This document shows, piece by piece, positions 16,662-60,590 of a stretch of DNA of 64,000 nt (within the stretch, counting starts at the first letter, position 1; each line of letters begins with the position of its first letter). Origin of the DNA: a virus (lineage: Duplodnaviria; Caudoviricetes); IMG/VR virus record IMGVR_UViG_3300028888_000107, positions 1 to 64,000 of that record; one strand, given 5' to 3'. Below the pieces are notes generated by a model. It saw only the letters and a program-made list of their open reading frames with translations. It had not been told where the DNA came from and ran no database searches. Position numbers and translations under genes: made by a program.

Positions 16662-16675
16662 ATCTTTATTGTTTT

Positions 16676-16754
16676 TAATTACAGTGCAAAAATACAAAAA
16701 TGTTTTAATATATGCAACTAAAAAACAAAAAAGTTATTAACAAAGTTATTAACA
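16676..16754 (-). promoter_or_regulatory. Early promoter cassette copy 1 (Bacteroidota TAnnTTTG -7 box plus tandem TTATTAACA boxes)
   Basis: Minus strand: TGTTAATAACTT x2 ... GTTG-N20-TATTTTTG ... TAATTAAAAAC leader. Confidence 0.8.
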
Positions 16755-16872
16755 ATATACTATAAAATTTTTATCAAATAATAATCCACTCAATATATAA
16801 ACAATGGTACATGTGTTTTTACTAAAATTAACAAATTCCTTTAGTGTTAACTTCAAATAAAAATTTATATTA

Positions 16873-18415: not shown

Positions 18416-18428
18416 ATCTTTGTTGTTT

Positions 18429-18506
18429 TAATTACAGTGCAAAAATACAAAACTTTTTAATATATGCAACTAAAAAACAAAAAAGTTATTAACAAAGATA
18501 TCAACA
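18429..18506 (-). promoter_or_regulatory. Early promoter cassette copy 2
   Basis: Near-identical to copy 1, including the leader up to the ATG at 18415. Confidence 0.8.
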
Positions 18507-18511
18507 ATACA

Positions 18512-39648: not shown

Positions 39649-39660
39649 ACCACTTGTTTT

Positions 39661-39739
39661 TAATTACACCGCAAAAATACAAAACTTTTTAATATATGCA
39701 ACTTTTGCTACAAAAAAGTTATTAACATTGTTATTAACA
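39661..39739 (-). promoter_or_regulatory. Early promoter cassette copy 4
   Basis: taattacaccgcaaaaatacaaaa...tatgcaac...gttattaacattgttattaaca. Confidence 0.8.
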
Positions 39740-41322: not shown

Positions 41323-41336
41323 ATCTTTATTGTTTT

Positions 41337-41415
41337 TAATTACACCGCAAAAATACAAAAATATTTTATATATGCAACTTTTTATGAAAAAAAGTTATTA
41401 ACAAAGTTATTAACA
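41337..41415 (-). promoter_or_regulatory. Early promoter cassette copy 5
   Basis: Same cassette with two TTATTAACA boxes. Confidence 0.8.
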
Positions 41416-41420
41416 AATTT

Positions 41421-42401: not shown

Positions 42402-42414
42402 AACTTTATGTTTT

Positions 42415-42493
42415 TAATTACACCGCAAAAATACAAAACTTTTTAATATATGCAACCACTTAAACAAAAAAGTTATTAACAAACTTATCAACA
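42415..42493 (-). promoter_or_regulatory. Early promoter cassette copy 6
   Basis: Same cassette; second box is TTATCAACA. Confidence 0.8.
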
Positions 42494-43159
42494 TTTAACA
42501 CATCTAACACCCATTGCCAAAGCTCTTGCACCAAAAGCACCGACAACATTTGCCCCTTTGTGCCAAATCCTAATAAACCAAGTATATTCATCGCTATCTT
42601 GGTATTCATCGGAACACCATAGATGTGAAGTGATGCCAAGTGGATTCTTTGTGTTTATGGAATAACCGTTTGGGTATATGTTTAAGTTTGTTTCGTTGTT
42701 TGTTTCTGCATTCCTACCAACGCTGTTTTCTACATCGCTTTTTAGCCAATCATTGTTTGAACAAATTGCCTTTGCGGTGTGTGCCAAATAAGGACGCATT
42801 TCTTCTTTGTTTAGGTTATGTTCACCTTTGCCCAAAAAAGTTAAAAGTTCTGTCCAATCGTTAATGGCGGTAACACGCCAACCCTTTGGGGCAAGCAATT
42901 CCGTGTCAACCGCCTCAAAATTGTAATGCAAACCGTAATTGGGCAACCTGCTTGACTTTGGCGTTAAGTTACCGGGGTATTCATAATAGGGTAGTTTGCC
43001 AAGTTCGGATGTGGCGTATGTGTTAAGGGGTGTGCCATCGTTTAACCGTGTAACCCTCAAATTGGAAGCCAACCATAACTTGTTGTTGATGTTAACGGCA
43101 TCATAGATATTGCCATCAATATCGGTTACTGCGTTTCTTATCAATTCAAAATTTTTCAT
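42488..43159 (-). CDS. Fibrobacter succinogenes major paralogous (FISUMP / Fib_succ_major) domain protein
   Basis: VTDIDGNIY, WLASNL, YGLHYNF, LAPKGWR, HLWCS and GVRCVK; no signal peptide; start MKNFEL. Confidence 0.85.
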   Translation of the reverse strand: MKNFELIRNAVTDIDGNIYDAVNINNKLWLASNLRVTRLNDGTPLNTYATSELGKLPYYEYPGNLTPKSSRLPNYGLHYNFEAVDTELLAPKGWRVTAINDWTELLTFLGKGEHNLNKEEMRPYLAHTAKAICSNNDWLKSDVENSVGRNAETNNETNLNIYPNGYSINTKNPLGITSHLWCSDEYQDSDEYTWFIRIWHKGANVVGAFGARALAMGVRCVKC

Positions 43160-43176
43160 AGTAACAAAATCAATGT

Positions 43177-43234
43177 GGCAAAAATACAAAATATTTTATA
43201 TAGGCAACCACAAACAACAAAAAAGTTATTAACA
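43177..43234 (-). promoter_or_regulatory. Early promoter cassette copy 7
   Basis: ggcaaaaatacaaaatattttatataggcaac...aaaagttattaaca. Confidence 0.75.
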
Positions 43235-45930: not shown

Positions 45931-46374
45931 TTATTTTTTCAATTTTATTCCAAGCATTCTTGAAACATCCTCGCCCCAATTTCGGTGGTGGGTGTTTGGC
46001 AACACAACAAACAAATGGGAACCCGTTCCAATATGTTTCATAATGTTGTTACTGTAAATGGCATTGACAAATTCATCTTCATTCACTTCCCTCATTATTC
46101 TATCATACAAAAACGACTTTAGACATTTTTCAATCTCAACCATAACCTCTCTATCAATAAAACCGTTTTTATTATTTTCATAATACTTATTTATGTACTC
46201 GTAAAAATCAATTGTATCATGAATAAAGTATTCGTTGTAAAAAGTGCCATACACCGCAACAAGCCCATTTATAGTCATTTCATAAACGTAGTTTCCAATG
46301 CCAAGCACAAGATCTTTTAAGGTGATATTATTTCTTTTTGTGTTAATTTCGTTAATCTTTTTTATGTGTGACAT
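45931..46374 (-). CDS. Hypothetical late protein with capsid-targeting-like N-terminus
   Basis: MSHIKKINEI. Confidence 0.6.
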   Translation of the reverse strand: MSHIKKINEINTKRNNITLKDLVLGIGNYVYEMTINGLVAVYGTFYNEYFIHDTIDFYEYINKYYENNKNGFIDREVMVEIEKCLKSFLYDRIMREVNEDEFVNAIYSNNIMKHIGTGSHLFVVLPNTHHRNWGEDVSRMLGIKLKK

Positions 46375-46389
46375 AGTGGTTTTTATATT

Positions 46390-46989
46390 TTATTCAGCCA
46401 AGAACCTTATTAACACATCAGGTCTCCCATACAAGCCATAATTCCAATTAGGTTCGGCATATTGTTCATCAAACATTGTTTTAAGGTAAATCACAGTAAA
46501 CCCGTTTCTTTCGTAAAATTCGCTTAAAAAACCATCGTAATGGTCAACCGTATTACCCCCGTTTTTAATGGCGTATCTTATAATAGCATCGCCAACACCC
46601 CCAATGTTTTGTTCATTGTTGTGCAAGGACACTATTTCACAACGCATTCTTGTACCCATTTTTGTTTGCTTTAACGCAAACCCAATATCATATCCCTTTA
46701 GTTTAAAAGTTTTAATTCCAAGTTCCTTTAATTCCTTTTCGTTGTATTTGGTTAAAAATTCAGTTCTTTCTGATTTGTAAGCCGATTTCAAAAAAGAAGC
46801 ATAGTTGTTTATTTCCCAAGAATCATCAATTCCAATAAGTTTTTTTACTTTGTTGCTTAATTCAACATCAAACACTTTTTCCAACAAAATTTTATCGCAC
46901 AAGAAACTGTTATGGGAACACTCCTTGTACAATTCCTTCATACATTGCGTGTTAAATACAAACTCTTCAAAAAGCATAATTCTTTTCAT
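46390..46989 (-). CDS. GNAT-like protein with capsid-targeting-like N-terminus
   Basis: MKRIMLFEEF; EIVSLHNN, GVGDAII..AIKNGG..VDHYDGFL..FYERNGF and W....GRPDV. Confidence 0.55.
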   Translation of the reverse strand: MKRIMLFEEFVFNTQCMKELYKECSHNSFLCDKILLEKVFDVELSNKVKKLIGIDDSWEINNYASFLKSAYKSERTEFLTKYNEKELKELGIKTFKLKGYDIGFALKQTKMGTRMRCEIVSLHNNEQNIGGVGDAIIRYAIKNGGNTVDHYDGFLSEFYERNGFTVIYLKTMFDEQYAEPNWNYGLYGRPDVLIRFLAE

Positions 46990-48661: not shown

Positions 48662-48693
48662 AATTTTTGGGTTTTAGGATTAGTTATTACTTT

Positions 48694-48772
48694 TAATTAC
48701 ACTGCAAAAATACAAAAATATTTTATATATGCAACCTTTTAGCAAAAAAAGTTATTAACAAAGTTATCAACA
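48694..48772 (-). promoter_or_regulatory. Early promoter cassette copy 8
   Basis: Same cassette with TTATTAACA and TTATCAACA boxes. Confidence 0.8.
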
Positions 48773-48864
48773 ACGCCCAAATGTTAAAAAGTTAAAAACA
48801 CACTTGTTTGGATATATGTAGTATATAAAACATATTTAGAAATATGCACCATATAATTAATATT

Positions 48865-50814
48865 TTAATCATTACAGTTTAATGTATATGTAACTTGCCC
48901 ACAATCCCAAACGGGAAGATATCCGTTGTTTTTCATTATTTCTTCATTACTGCTGCCTTTTCCAAAAGTTGTTCCAAGCAATCTATCCGCACCGTGTATA
49001 ACAAGCAAATTGTTTGTAATATGTCGTTTCCCGTTCCACCAATGCAAACTTGGGTTTGTTTCTTTTATCTTTTCAAAACCAAGACTTTCGTAAACGTTTC
49101 CAACAAACTTTGACAAATCGCAATAACTTACAATGTTTTTTGGATTTGTGTCTTTTTTAAAAAAATCAAACAATCTTTTTGAACCTCCAACAACAAGAAA
49201 TTTTGATTGTGCGCATAGCCTTAACAATTCCCATTCATAGTTCTTGTTGTATCTTGGCTTTCCGAATGACATAAGTTGAATAAGAACACCGTTATGATAA
49301 AGCCCGTAGGATTTTTCAACCCCTCTGCAAGAACCCTGCAGATGCCATAAATTTAAAAATTCAACGGCTTCGTTTTTTGCAACGGTTTTAATTTCACAAC
49401 TTCTTGCATATATTACCGTTTTTGGCATTAGCAAACCAATTATTTTGGAAATATCGTCCCAATCCCAGACATGAACACATCTGTAGCCGGCTTTTTGAGC
49501 GGCCAATGTTTTGCTTTTGTGATAATCTTGCCTTAACGGTTTACCCCCAAAAACATTAACAAGCGAATTGTGTGTGATGGTTGGGTTTATTTCAACAAGA
49601 ATATTTTCTATTTTAAAATCGTATGAATATCCGTTTATGTGAAACTCTCTTTCATGCTTAATTCCGGCATTTGTCAAAAGTTCGGAAAACCTTTTGTTTG
49701 GCTTGCTATCGTTTTTGTAGCCAAGCCTTGCTTCCTTACGTTGGCAACACCAATCAACACCGTATCTTTCTTGGTTGGTTAGCCTTGTTTTTTCTCTTGT
49801 TTCTTGATTTTGTGAGGTGTAGGCGCATCCATACCTTTTAAAATTGGTTTCCTTTGTTTTTCTTTTAACTTCTTCGTTTTGTGTTGGATATGGTGTTCCG
49901 TATTTTTTAATGTTAGTTTCCCTTGTCTTTGCTTCAGTTTCAATTCCATGCAAAGAACAAGCATTTCCATATTTTTCAAGGTTTGTGTTTTCTATTCTTT
50001 TCTTTCCTTCTTCGGTCTGCTGATAGTAATCCTTTCCATATAACTTGTTGTTGGTTTCCTTTACCTTTTCTTTAACAACAACACTTTGTGATGGATGGTT
50101 TGTGTTGTAATGCGTTTGTGATGTTTTCTTTGCCTTTTCCTTCACAACAACGCTTTGCATACTGTATTCGCAGCCAATGTTTTTCAAGTTTGTTTGCCTT
50201 GCCTTTTCCTTGGTTTTGTTTAAAGAAAAAACATTTTCAACACCATATCGTTTTAGGCAAGTTTCTTTGTTTTTTTCTTGGTTGTTGTAATTAGTGTCTC
50301 CATACCTTTTTAATTTGGTTTCTTTTGTTTTTTCTGAGTTTGAATATGTTGGCGAACCGTATTTCTCTGTTTTTGTTTTTTGTACCTTTTCTTGTGTTTC
50401 CTTTAGTTTTTGCGGGTTATCAACACCGTATTTTTTCAAACAAGTTTGCTTTGCGCCATGTCTGTTATTGTAGTTCTTGTTACCGTATTTTTGTAAACAG
50501 GTTTCTTCTTTTTTTAGTAAAATTTCCTTGCTTTTTTGCGCATGGCTGTTGCAACAATATGTGTTGTAGCCTTTTTTAAACCCGTTAAACGAACAACGCT
50601 TCCCACAATGGCAAACACCTATTTTTAAATCTTTATCGTTTAGTAAATAATGGTAAAGTTTTTGCCTAAACGAAAATTCTTTGGGAAACAACCAAGTTAA
50701 CATAACAGCATATTCATCAGGAAATGTTTCGGAAAACCCCTTTTCTTGTATTTGGTTTAAACCTCCCTTGCTTTTTGGAAGCAATAACAAATTGTATATT
50801 TCTTCTTTTGTCAT
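48865..50814 (-). mobile_element. Free-standing homing-endonuclease-like gene 1 (Zn finger, 23-aa KYG repeats, Vsr-like nuclease, Mom-like GNAT)
   Basis: CHCGK..YCC; about 12 T..KYG repeats; YSYDFKI..ILVEIN...VHVWDWD; IYARSCEI..HLQG..WELLRLC..SYCD..VYESLGF. Confidence 0.7.
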
Positions 50815-50832
50815 AAGGTATTTATTTGTTTG

Positions 50833-50862
50833 CAAAGATACAAAAAAATCAAATACAGCAAA
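50833..50862 (-). promoter_or_regulatory. Bacteroidota-type promoter (TTTG...TATCTTTG) for endonuclease 1
   Basis: TATCTTTG at 50840-50833 with TTTG about 18 nt upstream. Confidence 0.5.
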
Positions 50863-50864
50863 AC

Positions 50865-50895
50865 AAAAAACCCGCTCACTTGTGAGCGGGTTTTT
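50865..50895. terminator. Rho-independent terminator of the major capsid gene
   Basis: aaaaaa-cccgctca-cttg-tgagcggg-ttttt. Confidence 0.9.
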
Positions 50896-50920
50896 ATAGT
50901 GTCCCCATTAAGGGGTTGGG

Positions 50921-52672
50921 TTAAATCAAACTAACACCATCGTTTAATTTAATGCCAAAGGTGTAATATTGCACCTGTGGATGTTGTCCAGCTTCCACAA
51001 CAGCAAACCTACTCTTCATAGAAATTGCGGGAGCAAACGTAAATTCGGAAACAGTTTCCACCTTATCTGCGAGAAGATACGGCATGAATACAATACCGGG
51101 TTCGTTTTCTTTGCCTTTTCTGCCTACGCAAACCCTGCCATCGCTGTAAGCCATGTTAGGATCAACATAGATGCTAATGCCAGCCAAGTTGCCAATAGGA
51201 TACAAACTGTTACCGTTTGCGCTAATGGTGTTGGAAAGAGGATAAGGAACGAAACCAGCGCAATCTTGCAAAGCGGTTCCAATCATACCGGAAACCACTG
51301 CAAATGTGCCTTGTCCCCTACGACCCCTAACAGCAATAATGTTAGAAGCGGCAATAATTTTGGTCATAATCCTTCTTTGGATTGTACCCATAACTTCGCC
51401 ACCCATAGAAACATTGGTAGGAGTAATCTCACCAGTCTCAATAGGATTGCCTTCTTTGTCAAAACCTAACCACAATTTTTCAGGTGTAGTGGTTGTGCCA
51501 TCGCAGAAAATAGCGGAAATGTTGTTTTTACCTTCAACTTCCTCAATCTGCATAGCATTCAAAGCACCCAAGTTGAACATCTTTTCAAGGATGAGCTTGT
51601 TGATGCATTGGGTCAACTCGTTAACCAAAGCAGCCTCTGCCTGTGCAACGGCGTCAATGCCAAATTGTTTAAGGTCTTGAACCTGCTCACGAGTAATGGC
51701 ACTGTTAACTTGGAAAGTCTCAGCCTTAACATCCAAAGTGTAGGATTTCAAGCCAATCTGCCTACCGGCTGTTGCTTCGCCCATTTCCCTTGTGTAAGGG
51801 TTATTGGAAGTAACATTTCCTTTAACAAAACCTTCGCCACTGAAAGAAGTAACGTGGTCTTCAAATGCCCTAACCAATTCAACACCCTCTGATTTTTCAA
51901 CGGTCAAAGCGGTTTCTTCAGAACCTTCGCCTTTTTCAACCAAAGTGTAGGTACCGTCTGCCAAACCTTCGAAAAGTTCGTAAATTGGGGTCTCAGCACC
52001 TTCGCCACCCAGCATGTTGTTACCTTTGAAATAGGTTTTTTCCAAAACCCTAAACATAGGTTTGCCATCAATACGAGCGGGATAAATAAATGTTAATTCA
52101 TAATCATCGTTGCCTTGGAAAGCGTATTTTGCATTAGGTTTGAAAGTGTATTTCTCACCATTAACAGTAACACCGCTAATCATACCCTTAATCATATAAG
52201 GAGATGCTGTGTTCTTGTTTCCAAAAGGATTGGAAGTGGTTTCCCAACCGCCTTGGTTGTGCAACCTGCCACCTTCGTAAACATAGTCAAGGTATTGCAA
52301 CAAACCGTGAGGTCCTTGCATTGGAACAACGGGAACAAGGTCCAAAGCGATTGTCTGAGCTGCAACTTGCAAAGCAAGAGGAAGCACGCTGTAAACATTG
52401 TCACCGCTACCTGCCAAAGAAGGAGTGTAAGAGTTGGTTGTACCGGCTTGCGGGAAGGTGATAGCACCCATGCCACCGATGTTCATATTGGGGTTCAAAT
52501 GGACGTGTCCATCAACCGCCTCATTAACCATTTGTTTGTCATGCAAATCATGCAAGTAAGCATATTTTGCAATCCAGTTTACTTTAGAAGCATCTTGAAT
52601 ACCAAGGGATTCCTTGATGTGCTGACCCCATGAATTCATAATTTGCGCTTCGTTCAATTGAATTGAGTACAT
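50921..52672 (-). CDS. gp23: T4 gp23-like major capsid protein
   Basis: AAQTIALDLVPVVPMQGPHGLL, IDAVAQAEAALVNELTQCINK, RGRRGQG.F.V.S, G.LAG.SIYVDP, G..FMPY and MKSRFAV. Confidence 0.95.
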   Translation of the reverse strand: MYSIQLNEAQIMNSWGQHIKESLGIQDASKVNWIAKYAYLHDLHDKQMVNEAVDGHVHLNPNMNIGGMGAITFPQAGTTNSYTPSLAGSGDNVYSVLPLALQVAAQTIALDLVPVVPMQGPHGLLQYLDYVYEGGRLHNQGGWETTSNPFGNKNTASPYMIKGMISGVTVNGEKYTFKPNAKYAFQGNDDYELTFIYPARIDGKPMFRVLEKTYFKGNNMLGGEGAETPIYELFEGLADGTYTLVEKGEGSEETALTVEKSEGVELVRAFEDHVTSFSGEGFVKGNVTSNNPYTREMGEATAGRQIGLKSYTLDVKAETFQVNSAITREQVQDLKQFGIDAVAQAEAALVNELTQCINKLILEKMFNLGALNAMQIEEVEGKNNISAIFCDGTTTTPEKLWLGFDKEGNPIETGEITPTNVSMGGEVMGTIQRRIMTKIIAASNIIAVRGRRGQGTFAVVSGMIGTALQDCAGFVPYPLSNTISANGNSLYPIGNLAGISIYVDPNMAYSDGRVCVGRKGKENEPGIVFMPYLLADKVETVSEFTFAPAISMKSRFAVVEAGQHPQVQYYTFGIKLNDGVSLI

Positions 52673-52775
52673 TTCGTTTTTTTATATATTCTTTTAAGTT
52701 ATTTTAAATACTTCATTCACACTCAAGTTCTTTTCTTCTATAACCTAAAGGAATTTCGTATTTTGTTTCACAATA

Positions 52776-52783
52776 TATTTATA
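52776..52783 (-). promoter_or_regulatory. Late promoter TATAAATA for the capsid gene (second copy at 52823-52830)
   Basis: Two exact matches in the intergenic region upstream of gp23. Confidence 0.7.
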
Positions 52784-52872
52784 ACACTTAATTTTTGTGT
52801 TATTTTTACTCTGTTTTTATTATATTTATAAATGTAAGAATTTGTAATTGTTTTTCATTATAATTCTTTGCA

Positions 52873-52880
52873 TATAAATA
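52873..52880 (+). promoter_or_regulatory. Late promoter TATAAATA for endonuclease 2
   Basis: Exact match just upstream of ATG 52888. Confidence 0.5.
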
Positions 52881-52887
52881 TGTTAGT

Positions 52888-54903
52888 ATGTTAGCAAATG
52901 TTATTGAAACAACTGATAGAAACACACTTTTTAAGTATTTTCTGCAAAAGCCAAATCCTGACAAAAATGGAAGGCTAAAGCAAGAAAAGTGGTTTTCACA
53001 ATATTTTCCAGAAATCTACAAAGATTACAAAAAAACTGTTTTCGCAAAAGAAGCAGACAAGATGAAGTTTTCTCAAAAACTTTGGCATTTTTTACAATAT
53101 GATGAACAATTGTGTCTTGGCAAATGCAAAGAGTGTGGAAAGCGCACATCCTTTATAAGTTTTGCAAGCGGGTACTTAACATTTTGTTCAACCGAATGTT
53201 CAAACAAAAACAATGAAACAAAAGATGCCATTAAAAGCACCCTTATACAAAAATACAACGGTGTGGGTTTTGCTTCACAACAAATATCAAACAAATTTAA
53301 AAAAACCATGACCGATAAATATGGTTGTGAATATTCGGCACATTCAAACGAAATAAAAGAAAAAACAAAAAAAGTTAATCTTGAAAAATATGGAGGCACC
53401 GGTTTTGCTTCAGACATAACAAAAAGGTTGTTTATAAAAACAATGAATGAAAAATATGGTGTTAACTATTCTTGGGAATCCGAGGAATTGCGAAACAAAA
53501 CATATAAAACAAGCAAAGAGCGTTATGGTAATCCACATTACACAAATAAAGAAAAAGGCATTCAAACCCATTACAACAAAATAATAAAAAACTCAAAAGA
53601 CATCTTAAAAATAGAACAAGATTACTATGTGTGCAAATGCACCGAGCCTACTTGTGAAAAATGTGTGGAAAAGACCTTTAAAATAAGCAAGCAATTATAC
53701 TATATGAGAAGCATAAACGGTGATGTTGCTTGTGTAAAACTAAATAACCCAAAAAGCAAGAACACAAGCAACGATGAAAGAATTGTTTATGACCTTGTTT
53801 GCGAACTTTACAAAGGGGAAGTGCAAAGAAACAACAGAAAGGAACTAAACAAAAAGGAAATAGATATATACTTGCCCGAACTAAAAAAGGGAATTGAATT
53901 TAACGGTGACTATTGGCACAACAACCCCAACACAATGTTTGATGCGGAAAGGATGGATGTTTGGGAAAAGGATGAACAAAAAGAATTTTTAGCCAACCAA
54001 AACGGAATAGAAATTTTGCATATATGGGAAAACGAACTATCGGATATTGAATACGTCAAGTACAAAATAGCAAGGTTTGTTAAATCCACAACACCAAAAA
54101 CATCAGCATACTACAAGTTAAAAACCTTTTTGGATGGGTTGCAATCACAATATGTTGAAAACGTGTTTGGGGAGTTTGAATACAACAATGTTGTTGTTAA
54201 ATATGTCAACGCCTTTTACTACAACAACGCCACCACAAAAGGTTCCTTTTTTGCAAATTCGGAAAAGCGTGTAATTTACGCATACGATTACGAGGTAAAC
54301 GATGATAGAAAGTTTGGCGTCTTAAAATCCCAAATAGAGCATTCGCTTGGACTTACCAAAACAAAAATATACGCAAGGAATTGTGAATTGCGTGAAATAA
54401 CAAACCAACAAGCCAAACCCTTTTTGGAAGAAAATTCCTTGTATGGGTACAGGGGTGCAACAATAACGCTTGGTTTGTTTTACAAAGGCGAACTTGCAAT
54501 GGTTTACAGTTTTGGACATAATTACTATGGAAGAAAGGGTGCTTTGGAAGCCATTCGTGTATGCACCCTAAAAAACGTTGTTGTGGTGGGGGGAAGCAGC
54601 AAATGCCTTTCGTATTTCCTTAAAAAGTACGCACCAAGTTACAAGGGCAACAAACTTGTGTTTTACGTTGATAAAATTCACCAAGATGGAAAATCCTTAA
54701 AAGGTTTTAACTTTGTTCACCATTACGATGGTGTAATGAACTATTGGCTAAAGGAAAACTTTGGTGGAGCTTTGTATGGTGAGGCTGGAACCGCCTTTGG
54801 CAGAAACCCTTCCAAAAACAAGGAAATTGCAAAGTTGGAAAAAGATGGATACATTGTTTCGGTTCCAACTGTCGGTGTGGATGTTTATGAAATGGTTTTA
54901 TAG
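52888..54903 (+). mobile_element. Homing-endonuclease-like gene 2 (Zn finger, KYG repeats, Vsr-like domain, degenerate second domain, Mom-like GNAT)
   Basis: CKECGK..FCS..C; KEIDIYLPE..GIEFNGDYWH..LHIWENE; KIYARNCELREI..EAIRVC..VGGSSK. Confidence 0.7.
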
Positions 54904-54960
54904 ATAAAATTCCAATAAAAATAACAATTTATTGGCTGTTTTGGTTAAACTTTTTGGATT

Positions 54961-54971
54961 TTTTATTATAT
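54961..54971 (+). promoter_or_regulatory. TTTTATTATAT motif upstream of gp55
   Basis: 26 nt upstream of ATG 54997. Confidence 0.4.
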
Positions 54972-54996
54972 ATTATATAGATATACAGCACTTCAA

Positions 54997-55371
54997 ATGG
55001 GAAGGAAAAAAGGAAAACATTATATTGACCCAAAAGAGTTTTACGATGAAATGGTCATATCTTTGGAAAAAGATGAATTAACACCCAAAGCAATCCAATT
55101 TTGCCAAGAAATAATAGATAGAACTGCAATGTGCAACCACTATGATTCCAAAGAAGATTTGGAAGATTGCAAGGCATACGCAATGTTCAACATTTTAAGG
55201 TATTGGCGTAACTTTAACCCCGCCTTGTACGATAACCCATTCTCTTATTTTAGTTCATACAGCTGGACGGGGCTTTCGCAAGGTTGGAATATTTTGCACC
55301 CCAAAAAGGAAAGCGGATACACAAGGATTAGCATAAACGATTTGGATGACGGAGGGGATAAGGATTACTAA
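54997..55371 (+). CDS. gp55: T4 gp55-like late sigma factor
   Basis: KHYIDPKEFY, FNP....NPFSYFS and the Y..EDL.DC..A region are typical of gp55 homologues; matching TATAAATA promoters are present. Confidence 0.8.
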   Translation: MGRKKGKHYIDPKEFYDEMVISLEKDELTPKAIQFCQEIIDRTAMCNHYDSKEDLEDCKAYAMFNILRYWRNFNPALYDNPFSYFSSYSWTGLSQGWNILHPKKESGYTRISINDLDDGGDKDY

Positions 55372-55382
55372 AACCCGCAAAT

Positions 55383-55649
55383 ATGAAAATTGCAATTGAA
55401 GATTGTGTTAAGGTTCTTGGCAGGGGAACTGTAATAGTATGCAACCCACCCGAAGAACTTTTTGAATATGTAGATGACTTTTGTTATGCTTGCAAAATAA
55501 AATCGGGTGAAACAATAACAATAGATTCTTTAAGGTACATAATAAAAGGTGTTGAACAATTATCAACAAGCAAAAGTGTTGGACTTGTTATAAGCGGTAT
55601 TGGCGATTGCAACAAACTTATAGGAAAGAATTTTGAATATTTGAAATAA
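55383..55649 (+). CDS. Small hypothetical protein
   Basis: 88 aa. Confidence 0.55.
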   Translation: MKIAIEDCVKVLGRGTVIVCNPPEELFEYVDDFCYACKIKSGETITIDSLRYIIKGVEQLSTSKSVGLVISGIGDCNKLIGKNFEYLK

Positions 55650-55677
55650 AAAAGGGGCAATTTGTGTTGCCCCTTTT
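55648..55677. terminator. Bidirectional rho-independent terminator
   Basis: aaaaaa-ggggcaa-tttgtg-ttgcccc-tttt. Confidence 0.9.
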
Positions 55678-55697
55678 GTTTTTTGTTTGTGCTTGGA

Positions 55698-55997
55698 TTA
55701 ATCGTAAATTTCCTTTTCAAGTTCAAAAACATCACGTGTACTTACTTCTATTTTAAAAGTAACATTGCCACCGTTGTTAAAAACAAGTTCAACCGTGTTT
55801 TCTTTTTCGTTATATATGTAGTCTTCGTAAAAAACATCTTTTCCATGTGCAACTGATTCATAAAATTCTTCAAAGTTGTCATATTCGTTTTTTAGGTTTA
55901 AAATATCAACCATTTCTTTTGACAATATGGTGATTTTCATATCCATTTCACCACCGTTTACGTCCATCATTTCATTTATCTTTTTAATGTGTGTCAT
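55698..55997 (-). CDS. Small acidic late protein with capsid-targeting-like N-terminus
   Basis: MTHIKKINEMMD; TATAAATA at 56017-56024. Confidence 0.6.
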   Translation of the reverse strand: MTHIKKINEMMDVNGGEMDMKITILSKEMVDILNLKNEYDNFEEFYESVAHGKDVFYEDYIYNEKENTVELVFNNGGNVTFKIEVSTRDVFELEKEIYD

Positions 55998-56016
55998 AAC
56001 TTTTAATTTATTTTTA

Positions 56017-56024
56017 TATTTATA
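56017..56024 (-). promoter_or_regulatory. Late promoter TATAAATA
   Basis: 20 nt upstream of ATG 55997. Confidence 0.7.
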
Positions 56025-56027
56025 ATT

Positions 56028-57725
56028 TTAAAAATCGATTCTATATTTAATTTTACCGGCATCCCAACATTTGACATAACCACGGTTTCTCATAACTTCA
56101 TCTTCTGTTAATTCAGGATGTTCAACACATTCAACCAAATTTGATTTTTGAAAACGGTATCTTGGCAAACGAATATCCATTGTTGTCCAATAGTAAGTTG
56201 GTGGAACAATGTGTTCCTTTTCAAACCCCATCTTTTCATAAACATCACCGTTTGAAACAGATAAATCTGCAAATGTTATAATTGTTTTTGGATTATATAA
56301 CTTTACAAAGTGTTTTAGCAACTTGCTTGCACCGCCCCTTACGTGGGTATCAAAAGGTGAACACATACGACTTAACTCCCATTCGCCCTCCTTTGGTTTT
56401 CCACCGATTAAACGCCTTTTCTTTGCAAACAAGCAAACCATTACAAGTTGGTTATCTTTGTAAAGACCAAGTTTAACTTGCGAAGGTGTGTAGCCTTGGA
56501 TGTGGTATGTTTCACAAAACGCTTTGGCTGTTTTTGTATCAATTTCTCTAACAACACAATCTCTTGCGTTTATTTTGTTGGTATGCAATCCAAATTTACC
56601 ACGAATTATATTTTTAACAATATCTTTTTTGTATTTCCAATCATCTTCCCATATATGCAACAATTGTGTGCTTTTGTACGTGCATAATAATGTTTTATCG
56701 TAATGGTAATTTTTATCTTTGTATATGTCGCTATGCCAATACACACCGTTAAACTCAAATGCAAGATTTTTTTCCGGTAAGTATATGTCAAGTTCCTTAC
56801 CGTTTAAAAGTTTTCTATCGTTTTCTATTATTTTGCCATTGTATATATCTTGGATATATAGTAATAATTCTTGTTCACACCCACTGCTTAAAGCACCAAT
56901 AGGGTTTAATTTTGTGCAAGTTTCATAACCGTATCTTTTTCTATCGTTGTATAGTTGTTGTTTTGTTATGTAAGTTTTTTCTATACATTTGTCGCAATTT
57001 GGATTTGTGCATTTGCAAATCCAATCACCCGTTTCAGTAAAGCCAACAACAAAATCTTTATTGCCAAGTAATCGGGTTCTTCTGTTTTTCCTTGTTTTTT
57101 CTTTAACTTCCTTTATTGAATACGGGTTGTCCACACCATACTTTGTTAAAAAGGTGTTTTTTCTTTTTTCTTTAATTTCATTGCTTGAACTTGGGTTTTC
57201 TGTACCGTACTTTTTTAAACAGGTTTCTTTTGACAAATTTCTTACTGATTGAAGGCATAACGTGCATTTGACACCGTACTTTTTTAAGTTGATAACATCT
57301 CTTGATTTGTTTGCCCTTTCTACAACTTGTTTGTTTTGCGATGGGTTTTTAACACCATAATGTTTTATGTATGCTTCTTCCCTCTTTCTTTGCATTTCAT
57401 TGGCTTTTTCTTCACCGTATTTTTCCTTGTTTGATTTTCTTTTCTCATTTAAAATGTTTTCATCTTTTTGGCAACAAGAATATGAACAATGTTTTCTGTA
57501 TCCTGTGTTATAACCCGTGAATTTTGTTCTTTTTCCGCATATAACACATTTTCCAAGAAAAAAGTTTTTATCGTTATGAATGTAATGATACAACATTTGC
57601 ATAAATGAAAATTCTTCAGGAAAATTCCACAATTGCAAATCTTTGTAAATTTCAGGGTATTTTTTGGAAAATGACTTCTTGTTTAACCCTTGTATGTTTT
57701 CGTATGTTAATTCATCTTTTGTCAT
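56028..57725 (-). mobile_element. Homing-endonuclease-like gene 3
   Basis: CVICGK..CSYSC; 5 KYG repeats; KELDIYLPE..FEFNGVYWH..HIWEDDW; WELSRMC..GGASKLL..TFADL..YEKMGF. Confidence 0.7.
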
Positions 57726-57727
57726 AT

Positions 57728-59962
57728 TTAAAAATCGATTCTGTATTTAATTTTACCGGCATCCCAACATTTGACATATCCACGGTTTCGCATAACTTCA
57801 TCTTCTGTTAGTTCGGGATGTTCAACACATTCAACCAAATTTGATTTTTGAAAACGGTATCTTGGATATCTAACACCGTTAATTGCCCAATAGTATGTTG
57901 GCGGTACAACATATTCCTTTTTAAATCCCATCTTTTCGTAAACACCACCGTTTGAAACAGAAAGGTCTGCAAAAGTAACAATTGTTTTTGGATTGTATAG
58001 CCTTGCAAAGTGTTTCAACAACTTGCTTGCGCCTCCCCTTACATGGGTGTCAAAGGGTGAACACATTCTATAAAGTTCCCACTCCCCATCCTTTTTACCG
58101 GCACCGCTAATTCTTCTAACCGGACCAAACAAGCAAACCATTACAAGTTGGTTGTCTTTGTAAAGCCCAAGTTTAACTTGTGAAGATGTGTAGCCTTGGA
58201 TATGGTAGGTATCACAAAACTTTTTTGCCGTTTTTGAATCTATTTCTTTAACAACACAATTTCTTGCGTTTAATTTGTTGGTATGCAAACCAAGTTTTCC
58301 TCGTATCAGGTTTTTAAGTATGTCTTTCTTGTTTAGCCAATCATCTTCCCAAATGTGAATTAGTTGTACGCCCTTGTTTAAACAAGATATTGATTTGTTG
58401 TAATGGTAATCTTTTTCTTTATATATGTCGCTGTGCCAATACACACCGTTAAATTCAAAGGCAAGTTTTTTTTCCGGTAGATAAATATCAAGTTCCTTGC
58501 CGTTCAAAAGTTTTCTATCGTTTTCAATTATTTTACCGTTGTATATATCTTGAATATATAGCAACAATTCTTGTTCCCTTCCACTGTTTAAAACACCTAT
58601 CGGGTTTAACTTGGTGCAAGTTTCATAACCACCAATTATTCTATCCTTGTTTATGTTTGCATTTGTTATATATGTTTTTTCTATACATTTGTCGCAATTT
58701 GGATTTGTGCATTTGCAAATCCATTGTCCGTTTTCTGTGTATCCCAACAAAAAATTATGTTTTTCTACTGTGTTTTTTCTAACTTTTTTTAAATTGGCTT
58801 CTTTTGCCGTATTTGTTTCCAAAAAACTGTTTACACCATATTTTTCTTGGTTTGTTTTTATTACCCTTTTCTTTACTTCATCATTTTGGGATGGATGTTC
58901 AACACCATACTTTTTTATAGAAGTTTTCTTTGTTTTGCTTTTAAAATCTTCTGTTTGTGTATAGTATTCTTTTCCATATTTGGTTAAGTTGGTTTGTTTT
59001 GTTTTTTCTTTTATTTCATGTGAACACACAGGCGAATTTCCGCCATACCTTTCTTGGTTAGTTTCTTTTATTTTATCCCTTACTTCTTTTGCCCTTAATG
59101 AATTTGAAACACCGTAGTTTTTTAAAAAAGTTTCTTCCCTTTTTTGCTTTACTTCTTCTGCTTGTGAAACATTATCAACACCATACCTTTCTTGATTTGT
59201 TTTTCTTATTTTTTCTTTTATTTCTTCATTTTTTAAAGGAGATGTTTCACCATATTTTAACATACAAGTTCTTTTTATTTTTTCTTGAACTTTTTTTGAT
59301 TGTGCAGGATTGTTAACACCGTAGTTTTTTAAAAAGGTTTCTTCCCTTTTTTGCTTTATTTTTTCTGCCTGTGAAACATTAACCACACCATACCTTTCTT
59401 GGTTGGTTTTTCTTATTTTTTCTTTTATCTCCGTGTTTTTAAGTGGTGTCGTCTCACCGTATCTTTCCAAACAAGTTTCTGTTCGTTTTTTCAAAACACT
59501 TTTGTTTTGTATTGCGTGTTTTACACCGTATTTTTTAAGGGTGGTTTGCTCTTGCTTTCTTTTTATTTCTTCCTTTTCTTTTTCTGTTTTGTTTTTATAA
59601 TTCTCTTGTTTTTTTATTTTTATTGCTTCTTTTTCTTCGTTTGTTCTTTTGTTTATGGTATCTTTCATTCTTTTTGAAACAACACCGCTTTTGTTTATGC
59701 AATCCCTTGAACAATATTCATGATAGCCTTCATATATGTTAACAAAATTGCAACGCTTTCCACAAAATGGACAAACACCAAGTAAAAGGTCGACATCTTC
59801 ATTTATATAGTGATACAGTTTTTGCTTAAATGAAAAACCCTCTGGATAGTTGGTAGAAGATATTTCACCATATTCTTGAGGAAATGTTTTTGCAAACCCC
59901 TTTTCGGTTGTAAAATATCCGCTTTTAGATTCTTTGCATTTTGCTATTATGTAATCTTTCAT
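57728..59962 (-). mobile_element. Homing-endonuclease-like gene 4 (tandem paralogue of gene 3)
   Basis: Start reassigned to MKDYIIAK; 11 KYG repeats; C-terminal region nearly identical to gene 3, both ending CWDAGKIKYRIDF. Confidence 0.7.
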
Positions 59963-59976
59963 ACTGTATATATAAT

Positions 59977-60007
59977 AAAAAACGGGCAAAATATTTTTGC
60001 CCGTTTT
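59977..60007 (-). terminator. Rho-independent terminator of the tail tube gene
   Basis: aaaacgggcaaaa-tat-ttttgcccgtttt; T-tract on the minus strand. Confidence 0.85.
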
Positions 60008-60035
60008 ATTTTTTAAATTATTGATATTAAATATA

Positions 60036-60590
60036 TTAAATACCAATCAACTGCTCGTCCCAATAATCGCATCTCAAATTCAAGGTAAGTTCAGCGGCTT
60101 CGGAGTTATCGTATGCCAAATCACCCATACCCGTTAAGTTGCCGGTTGGAAACACATCCTTAAGGATAATCTTTCTGTACACACTGCCATCACGGTTAAA
60201 TTGAACAATTACACCGGAACCACAGTAATCTTTTTTCATACCACTTGCACCAGTAAGCGGATCCCAAATCATGTTTCTCCACCTTCTTAAAGATGTGTAA
60301 ACATAGTTTTCGTTTGAGTCATCCAAGTTCATTGTAAACACAACTGTTAGGTCAAGAGTGGTTTTTTCAGGAAATCCCGCATAACTTCTTGTAGCCTGCT
60401 TGTATTTTTGTTCCGTTGTTGTCACACTTGGGTTAAGGTCATCCAAACCGCCTATTGATTTGACGTGTTCAATAAGAATTGGGGATAGGGATGTTGGGCT
60501 GAACAAAGTAAGTTCAAACATTGCGTTATAAACCGGTTCCCAATGGTTTATAGCGGCTTGCGAGTTTCTATAATGAGGTAAACCTGCCAT
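60036..60590 (-). CDS. gp19: T4 gp19-like tail tube protein
   Basis: WEPVY..MFEL, W...IWDPLTG..G.KKDY, Q..RDG, VFPT and LRCDYW. Confidence 0.85.
   Translation of the reverse strand: MAGLPHYRNSQAAINHWEPVYNAMFELTLFSPTSLSPILIEHVKSIGGLDDLNPSVTTTEQKYKQATRSYAGFPEKTTLDLTVVFTMNLDDSNENYVYTSLRRWRNMIWDPLTGASGMKKDYCGSGVIVQFNRDGSVYRKIILKDVFPTGNLTGMGDLAYDNSEAAELTLNLRCDYWDEQLIGI

Follow-up and report, generated by a model that had tools for sequence, protein, structure and literature searches.

Four probable Hef-type homing endonuclease genes with Mom-related C-terminal domains next to late genes of an uncultured T4-like phage

The locus and its neighbouring genes

The DNA considered here, referred to as the window, is a stretch of 64,000 nucleotides (nt) that corresponds to positions 1 to 64,000 of the IMG/VR record IMGVR_UViG_3300028888_000107, a 78.6-kb fragment (estimated 33% complete) of an uncultured virus that is a T4-like phage. 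Our subject is a set of four paralogous open reading frames (ORFs) in this window, designated H1 to H4. They are very likely free-standing homing endonuclease genes of the Hef type that lie as selfish cassettes in the intergenic gaps beside conserved late genes, with a nuclease of the EDxHD or Vsr-like kind and a C-terminal tail related to the Mom protein of phage Mu, a judgement that concerns the identity of the genes and not the function of the tail. No further Hef-like copies were found in the source record.

H1 (copy 1; 48865-50814, minus strand) encodes a Hef-like homing endonuclease of 649 amino acids (phrog_3339, E 4.6e-84) and is separated from H2 by the gene for the major capsid protein (gp23-like; 50921-52672, minus strand; phrog_138, phrog_28442). 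H2 (copy 2; 52888-54903, plus strand) encodes a homologous protein of 671 amino acids (phrog_3339, E 4e-58), is oriented divergently from the capsid gene and is followed by a gene for a late sigma factor of the gp55 type (54997-55371, plus strand; phrog_234, E 9e-7). The remaining two Hef-like genes lie in tandem on the minus strand, H3 (copy 3; 56028-57725) with 565 amino acids (phrog_3339, E 1.7e-117) and H4 (copy 4; 57728-59962) with 744 (phrog_3339, E 1.4e-149), and the gene for the tail tube protein (gp19-like; 60036-60590, minus strand; phrog_3629/4542) is directly upstream of H4. The H1 frame can be extended to a TTG at 50835 and that of H4 upstream to 60046, also as a TTG frame, but the ATG codons at 50814 and 59962 are the likely starts because the longer frames would enter the upstream terminator in the case of H1 and the tail tube gene in the case of H4. 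A first-pass annotation of the window, made from the sequence alone, had described four such genes beside homologues of gp23, gp55 and gp19, and the ORF calls and the assignment of the neighbours to phrog_138, phrog_234 and phrog_3629/4542 agree with that description, except that gp55, which had been counted among the "core structural genes", is a transcription factor and not a structural protein.

Shared architecture and family membership

H2, H3 and H4 can each be aligned with H1 over the whole length, at 31-36% identity, and all four proteins present the same order of parts, i.e., an N-terminal finger, a series of KYG repeats, a nuclease and a C-terminal domain of ~180 amino acids. The finger is a conserved segment of the form CxxCGK...GY...C...C. 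The repeats are 23 amino acids each (Pfam DUF7487) and vary in number between the copies, with ~12 in H1, 4-5 in H2, 5 in H3 and 11 in H4. A second Cys cluster occurs in H2, H3 and H4 and is missing from H1. The nuclease motifs follow one another as D...E-x-N...H...H/D...HIW in all four proteins, and the motifs AR.C, H.QG, E..R.C, GG.SK, D and G..Y..GF of the C-terminal domain fall into a shared alignment. Each of the four matches PHROG 3339, annotated "homing endonuclease" (E 4e-58 to 1e-149), and PHROG 559, and it is on account of the phrog_3339 matches that the shared order of parts cannot be put down to chance. When the full-length proteins were compared with Pfam, DUF7487 was the sole match, a match to Mom being obtained only with the C-terminal domains scanned alone; NCBIfam returned no match for any of H1-H4. 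The common finger, repeats, nuclease and C-terminal domain that the first-pass annotation had listed for the four genes are thus all recovered by the alignment, DUF7487 and phrog_3339.

The family to which these genes belong is widespread and diverse. Searches with tblastn detected homologues in 419 phage records, every one of them at less than 60% identity, and a megablast comparison of the 11-kb region with 50,697 phage records gave no match. Phages that carry homologues infect, among others, Vibrio, Campylobacter (with 10-12 places per genome), Klebsiella and Acinetobacter, and they also include T-even coliphages and jumbo phages. Annotated homologues are labelled "Hef-like homing endonuclease", with one labelled "putative nuclease/acetyltransferase". 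In Tequatrovirus LH2, a homologue of 522 amino acids, consisting of the nuclease and the C-terminal domain, lies between nrdA and nrdB, which is the published position of hef (PMC2988022). The Hef enzyme of phage U5 targets nrdB, as MobE does (reviewed in PMC2988022), and enzymes of the Hef type have been assigned to the EDxHD family founded by I-Bth0305I (Taylor et al. 2011, PMC3239194).

The nuclease domain

A profile built from 70 family sequences matches the catalytic domain of I-Bth0305I (PDB 3R3P) at E 1.3e-6, and in sequence searches of the PDB with whole-protein profiles 3R3P was the only structure found, Mom not being among the results. The second Cys cluster and the nuclease domain of H3 (56574-57053, minus strand; residues 225-384) were modelled with AlphaFold at a mean predicted local distance difference test score (pLDDT) of 93.5. 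The model has a Vsr-type nuclease fold, which derives from that of PD-(D/E)xK enzymes, and its best match in the PDB is again 3R3P (Foldseek E 9e-4, target-based template-modelling score, TMt, 0.71, 29% identity), with Vsr (1CW0, E 0.025; 1VSR) ranking next and then the DUF559-like structure 3HRL. The Vsr/DUF559-like nuclease named by the first-pass annotation is therefore upheld, both by the profile match to 3R3P and by the order of the fold matches, 3R3P and then Vsr.

Within the modelled segment, residues E87, D89, E100, H107, H117 and K120 are conserved in at least 90% of the family. Residues were mapped to I-Bth0305I by sequence alignment and not by superposition, and by this mapping the equivalents of D196, N208 and H213 (the D of ELDIY, the E-x-N of FEFN and the H of YWH, respectively) are present in all four copies and in at least 90% of the family. 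The position of D222 is occupied by His in H1, H3 and H4, as in the "YH" of most of the family, and by Asp in H2, where the assignment is anchored on the following K-G. The nuclease of H1 is the most divergent of the four, and its equivalent of E170 is ambiguous in the alignment. A seemingly dead nuclease in H3, with Asn at the D222 position, proved to be an alignment artefact; the 70-sequence profile and ungapped anchoring on K-G put a conserved His at this position, and H3 has kept it. The sequences offer no feature that would speak for a dead nuclease in any of the four genes.

The C-terminal domain as a relative of Mom

The C-terminal domain of H3, designated P0005 (56031-56573, minus strand), was used as the query in an exhaustive HMMER search, which yielded 15,714 cluster representatives (clustered at 50% identity) at E <=1e-3; among the best 150 of these, the domain is nearly always C-terminal in proteins of 450-700 amino acids. 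An AlphaFold (AF2) model of P0005, made with 70 homologues as the alignment, has a pLDDT of 93.9. In a Foldseek comparison of this model with the PDB, phage Mu Mom (8BV8) ranked first (E 5.5e-9, query-based template-modelling score, TMq, 0.70), followed by ordinary GNAT acetyltransferases; there were 251 matches at E <=1e-3, and those listed are all GNATs. Alignment of the model to Mom with VIA-align gave a Z-score of 14.6 over 156 residues, and other GNATs gave ~14 over ~130 residues.

Comparisons at the level of sequence lead to the same protein. The motifs of P0005 and Mom align in BLASTP (E 0.019), and hhalign, applied to the family and an alignment of 31 Mom sequences, returned a probability of 95.7% (E 1e-8, 136 columns). 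The Pfam Mom family PF25680 is the only family matched by the domains scanned alone, with scores of 27.7 bits for H3, 26.6 for H4 (57731-58273, minus strand; 83% identical to the H3 domain) and 16.1 for H1 (48868-49413, minus strand; E 0.009). Set against the PF25680 gathering score of 27.1 bits, H3 lies above and H4 just under; the corresponding domain of H2 (54367-54900, plus strand), which is apparently decayed, has no Pfam Mom match. Identity between Mom and these domains is ~18-24%. As judged from the predicted model and the profile comparisons, the C-terminal domain has a GNAT fold and is genuinely related to the Mom protein of phage Mu. The relationship to Mom proposed in the first-pass annotation, for which structure prediction had been suggested as a check, is accordingly borne out, in that the predicted fold is that of a GNAT and Mom is both the nearest solved structure and the only Pfam match.

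Active-site residues and differences between the copies

Mom transfers glycine from Gly-tRNA(Gly) to adenine N6 in double-stranded DNA (dsDNA), as described in a 2026 study in which R111, S124 and R151 were found to be essential (R151A is inactive) and H58, Y59, W48, D149, Y159, W181 and a helix-turn-helix (HTH)-like insertion to be important (PMC13219725). We have traced the equivalents of several of these residues through 150 family representatives, for which the counts below are given in P0005 numbering. The equivalents of Mom E108 (E66), R111 (R69) and Y159 (Y112) are kept in 150/150, that of H58 (H24) in 149/150, that of S124 (S83) in 117/150 and that of D149 (D103) in 104/150. At the position of R151 (S105), Arg occurs in 65/150 and in none of the four copies in the window, and the Trp of W48 (K14) is not kept. 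A glycine, G80, is present in 150/150 and belongs to a V-x-G-G-A-S-K loop at the junction of beta4 and alpha3, the position at which GNATs have their cofactor pyrophosphate loop; the Mom sequence there is P-R-N-S-E-S. The V-x-G-G-A-S-K loop, which is not found in Mom, may be taken as a hint that an acyl-CoA would serve as the donor for the Mom-like domain. In the P0005 model, an insertion at 138-163 contains short helices together with the near-invariant R138 and K143; the HTH-like insertion of Mom consists of residues 175-209, and the VIA alignment reaches Mom residue 221.

The four copies do not appear to be equivalent in this domain. H3 and H4 retain every family-invariant GNAT residue, and R69, S83, H24, D103 and Y112 are all found in both. 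H1 has kept H24, E66, R69, D103 and Y112, has lost the near-invariant Y127, R138, K143 and E157, and has its Ser (the S83 equivalent) shifted by one register. In H2, H24 is replaced by S, Q26 by Y and Y112 by L, and R138, K143 and D171 are lost; its GNAT domain is probably inactive. The first-pass annotation had envisaged a cutter coupled to a DNA modifier in each protein. This cannot be extended to every one of the four proteins, considering the six residues lost and the missing Pfam Mom match in H2, the four residues lost in H1 and the lack of an R151 equivalent in all four, and what stands of the proposal is that H3 and H4 keep the family-invariant residues.

H2 alone has an extra stretch of ~90 amino acids between the nuclease and the GNAT domain (residues ~386-480; 54043-54327), which is rich in Y, N and V and has no counterpart in H1, H3 or H4.

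Mobility of the first copy

A metagenome contig, L009 (JAEEGL010524474.1), provides a natural comparison for H1. Over window 51395-50861, which takes in the capsid gene's 3' end and terminator, the identity is 92%, and over window 48773-47607 it is 94%; the contig joins window position 50861 to 48855 via 17 nt, such that window 48856-50860, which holds H1 and a short leader, is absent. Since L009 lacks exactly H1, H1 is a mobile cassette (48856-50860, minus strand; 2005 nt, in which the ORF is preceded by its own promoter-like TATCTTTG and followed by a short tail) and L009 is a natural endonuclease-minus allele. Free-standing homing endonuclease cassettes show just this pattern of presence and absence, and the likeness to such genes that the first-pass annotation had drawn is supported for H1 by a near-identical contig that is precisely without it.

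The metagenome scan recovered one close contig, covering the H1 side only, and found no close relative that spans H2-H4. The relatives obtained from a capsid-based scan of IMG/VR were only 37% identical and had no Hef-like gene close by, and they do not inform on presence or absence. Hef-like genes do occur beside the capsid gene in the more distant capsid loci L012 and L013, between gp23 and gp24 in Acinetobacter phage Apostate and just after the major head gene in Pseudomonas phage PAC2.

The same part of L009 differs from the window in another respect. In place of window 48774-48794, the contig (L009:646-1078) has a small gene of ~144 amino acids, starting MTHIKRINE..., that is not at this place in the window. 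The same N-terminal "tag" opens two ORFs elsewhere in the window, at 55698-55997 (MTHIKKINEM) and 45931-46374 (MSHIKKINE). The small tagged gene in L009, taken together with the missing H1, marks the stretch as a hot spot for the gain and loss of small tagged genes and endonuclease cassettes. Comparison with L009 (1137-1226) also revealed an intergenic element of ~85 nt at window 48689-48773, which recurs with 84-89% identity in at least six other places (41327-41416, 42412-42496, 16666-16756, 18426-18508, 39658-39739 and 43178-43234), always on the same strand and at the starts of small genes, and which may be a shared promoter or leader module. An ORF of 199 amino acids at 46390-46989 has phrog_2563 (unknown function, E 1e-8) as its only match.

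Copies 3 and 4 as a tandem pair

The last 1029 nt of H3 and H4 are 82.6% identical, whereas their N-terminal arms share only ~43% protein identity and differ in repeat number. Similar 3' halves joined to different arms fit a duplication followed by a change of the DNA-binding arm. The ratio of nonsynonymous to synonymous divergence (dN/dS) between the two genes is 0.20 in the GNAT domain and 0.08 in the nuclease, and both halves are thus under purifying selection. Across 56028-60046, synonymous divergence between the two is uneven and drops from saturation in the N-terminal part to ~1.3 in the nuclease and to 0.57 in the GNAT domain; this may have come about because only part of the gene was duplicated or because the 3' halves underwent gene conversion.

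Expression signals

The contexts in which the genes are predicted to be expressed differ. H1 lies behind the capsid terminator, with TATCTTTG (TAnnTTTG) 26 nt upstream of the ATG; a late-type TATAAATA is present at -15 of H2; and H4 comes after a hairpin that follows the tail tube gene. H3 starts 2 nt past the stop of H4 and is therefore probably cotranscribed with it. The host-type, late and read-through contexts of the first-pass annotation are, as predictions from sequence, roughly as it had described them. Late-type TATAAATA boxes occur in both orientations in the gap of 215 nt between the capsid gene and H2 (52673-52887), two of them directed towards the capsid gene (-158 and -111) and one towards H2 (-15).

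Interpretation and rival explanations

How such cassettes might spread can be pictured by reference to better-known homing enzymes. By analogy with the NUMOD arm of I-Bth0305I, the zinc finger and the variable KYG arm would bind an extended site in the DNA of a cassette-free phage; the Vsr-type domain, for which the fold and the catalytic residues are in place, is predicted to cut the bound site; and recombinational repair would then copy the cassette in, as the presence/absence polymorphism of H1 would suggest. Of the possible roles for the intact Mom-like domains (those of H3 and H4, and less surely that of H1), the one that we favour, though only tentatively, is that they acylate a DNA base near the bound site. 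A more specific form of this idea, that the tail is an active base acyltransferase held at its own target by the repeat arm and perhaps using, in view of its glycine-rich cofactor loop, an acyl-CoA instead of a charged tRNA, we consider somewhat unlikely. If it were true, each cassette would write a site-specific mark that controls its own cutting, and the cassettes would be homing elements with built-in modification-based immunity, in which both the DNA modification and the selfish-gene logic would be of a new kind.

Several observations weigh against such a role for the tail, or against the broader reading of the four genes. The position of the essential Mom R151 is S, I, S and S in H1 to H4, respectively, Arg being absent from all four, and the position of W48, at the Mom dimer interface, is K, N or Q. 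The VIA Z-score that relates P0005 to Mom is tied with those of ordinary acetyltransferases, Mom being distinguished as the longest match. H1 and H2 have lost near-invariant GNAT residues and yet have open frames, from which it follows that an active GNAT domain may be dispensable for the nuclease. Where two phages infect together, a modifier would hardly be able to distinguish the DNA of the carrier from that of the target, and this reasoning weakens a self-protection reading. The minus allele is available for H1 only.

The domain combination could alternatively serve as a one-chain restriction-modification weapon rather than as a homing element, with the Mom-like domain modifying adenines of the phage's own DNA and the fused nuclease sparing that DNA while attacking unmodified DNA of the host or of co-infecting or superinfecting phages. 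A function of this kind has been predicted for the Mom domains of jumbo phages that are fused to nucleases of the restriction endonuclease (REase) fold, of which there are five copies in PA5oct, the modification being thought to protect the phage and the nuclease to attack host or superinfecting DNA (Iyer, Anantharaman, Krishnan, Burroughs and Aravind 2021, PMC7824862). PAC2, a PA5oct-like phage, has five matches to the H1-H4 proteins, and the relationship to Mom, the conserved active-site equivalents and the purifying selection on the GNAT domain would all be in keeping with such a weapon. We nevertheless regard it as unlikely for the genes described here, given that the family prototype, Hef, is reported to be a homing endonuclease aimed at nrdB (PMC2988022), that H1 shows a cassette-type presence/absence at a fixed intergenic site, and that many diverged paralogues per genome with different arms fit site-specific homing better; moreover, H1 and H2 persist despite their decayed GNAT residues, and in a mixed infection the modification would shield the rival phage too.

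Two further alternatives keep the homing endonuclease and assign a different role to its tail. The GNAT domain may no longer be an enzyme and may act in DNA binding, base flipping or dimerisation, placing two Vsr-type domains for a double-strand cut, as could be imagined from the facts that Mom is a dimer that binds dsDNA (PMC13219725) and that I-Bth0305I needs dimerisation (PMC3239194). The missing equivalents of R151 and W48 and the tolerance of H1 and H2 to the loss of conserved residues point the same way. This is an improbable explanation all the same, since E66, R69, Y112 and G80 are kept in every representative and H24 in all but one, these residues line the Mom/GNAT active site, a glycine-rich G-G-A-S-K loop lies at the GNAT cofactor site, and conservation of this sort is typical of catalysis and not of a scaffold. 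The GNAT toxins TacT and AtaT act on charged tRNA, and the tail could, in a similar way, acylate a substrate other than DNA, such as a charged tRNA or a host protein, which would let the cassette act in addiction or in host takeover independently of the cut. The structural neighbours that rank behind Mom are protein N-acetyltransferases such as RimI, Naa50 and Ard1, and the motif-A-like x-x-x-G-G-A loop, which is absent in Mom, suggests an acyl-CoA donor; against this, Mom is the only relative at the level of sequence, and the domain almost always stands behind a DNA-binding arm and a DNase, a setting that points to DNA; we regard a non-DNA substrate as very unlikely.

Relationship to known systems

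The closest counterparts of H1-H4 are Hef of U5 and the Hef-like genes of PHROG 3339/559, including F-LimIII, VII, VIII and X of Dickeya phage LIMEstone1 and the genes of CPX/CP220-type phages of Campylobacter. These share the repeat arm, the Vsr-type nuclease and the C-terminal GNAT domain, and they likewise occur as free-standing genes beside conserved genes, in several diverged copies per genome. They differ from H1-H4 in that the latter have arms of up to 12 repeats and show partial decay of the GNAT domain in two of the four copies, and the identity of H1-H4 to any phage record is below 40%. I-Bth0305I (3R3P), the EDxHD prototype, has the same Vsr-like core and the same placement of D, E-x-N and H, with its DNA-binding arm also on the N-terminal side, but it is intron-encoded, has NUMOD motifs in place of the KYG repeats and ends at the nuclease without a GNAT domain. 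Mu Mom (8BV8, PF25680), which depends on Gly-tRNA(Gly) for its carbamoylmethylation of adenine N6 in dsDNA, is similarly made up of a GNAT core with an insertion after the core; it is a free-standing protein that is not fused to a nuclease and has P-R-N-S-E-S in place of the G-G-A-S-K loop. Single-chain Type IIG/IIC restriction-modification enzymes such as MmeI also hold a cutter and a modifier in one polypeptide. Enzymes of the MmeI type differ in having an S-adenosylmethionine (SAM)-dependent methyltransferase and a target-recognition domain and in being cellular defence genes, and no homology to H1-H4 was seen.

The fusions of Iyer et al. 2021 (PMC7824862) have the same domain combination, the same predicted logic and several copies per phage (five in PA5oct), although they were treated as modification-restriction systems, were not called Hef and were presented as a prediction only; in the window, by comparison, one copy is a presence/absence cassette. 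The five "momylating enzymes" of PA5oct would be its Hef-like genes if the five matches in the related PAC2 are a guide. The coupling of cutting and protection, which the first-pass annotation had offered as an inference, is thus a published prediction (PMC7824862) and not a new idea, and indeed the Hef family, the EDxHD nuclease, the fusion to Mom and the cut-and-protect idea are all already in print. Our literature search found no paper that assays the Mom-like half and, within the library searched, none that links "Hef-like" to acetyltransferase.

Significance

As a discovery, the set of genes described here is ordinary. What it adds are new handles on a known family, namely a natural cassette-free allele for H1, from which a candidate substrate for cleavage can be named; H3 and H4 as a tandem pair whose catalytic half is the same and whose DNA-binding arms differ; and, in one genome, GNAT domains at successive grades between intact and decayed. 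The domain family is very large (15,714 representatives at 50% identity), and should the Mom-like domain prove to modify DNA, hypermodification of phage DNA would have a widespread source in the Hef-type genes that has been overlooked, and these genes would serve as a model of the way in which a selfish nuclease spares the genome that carries it.

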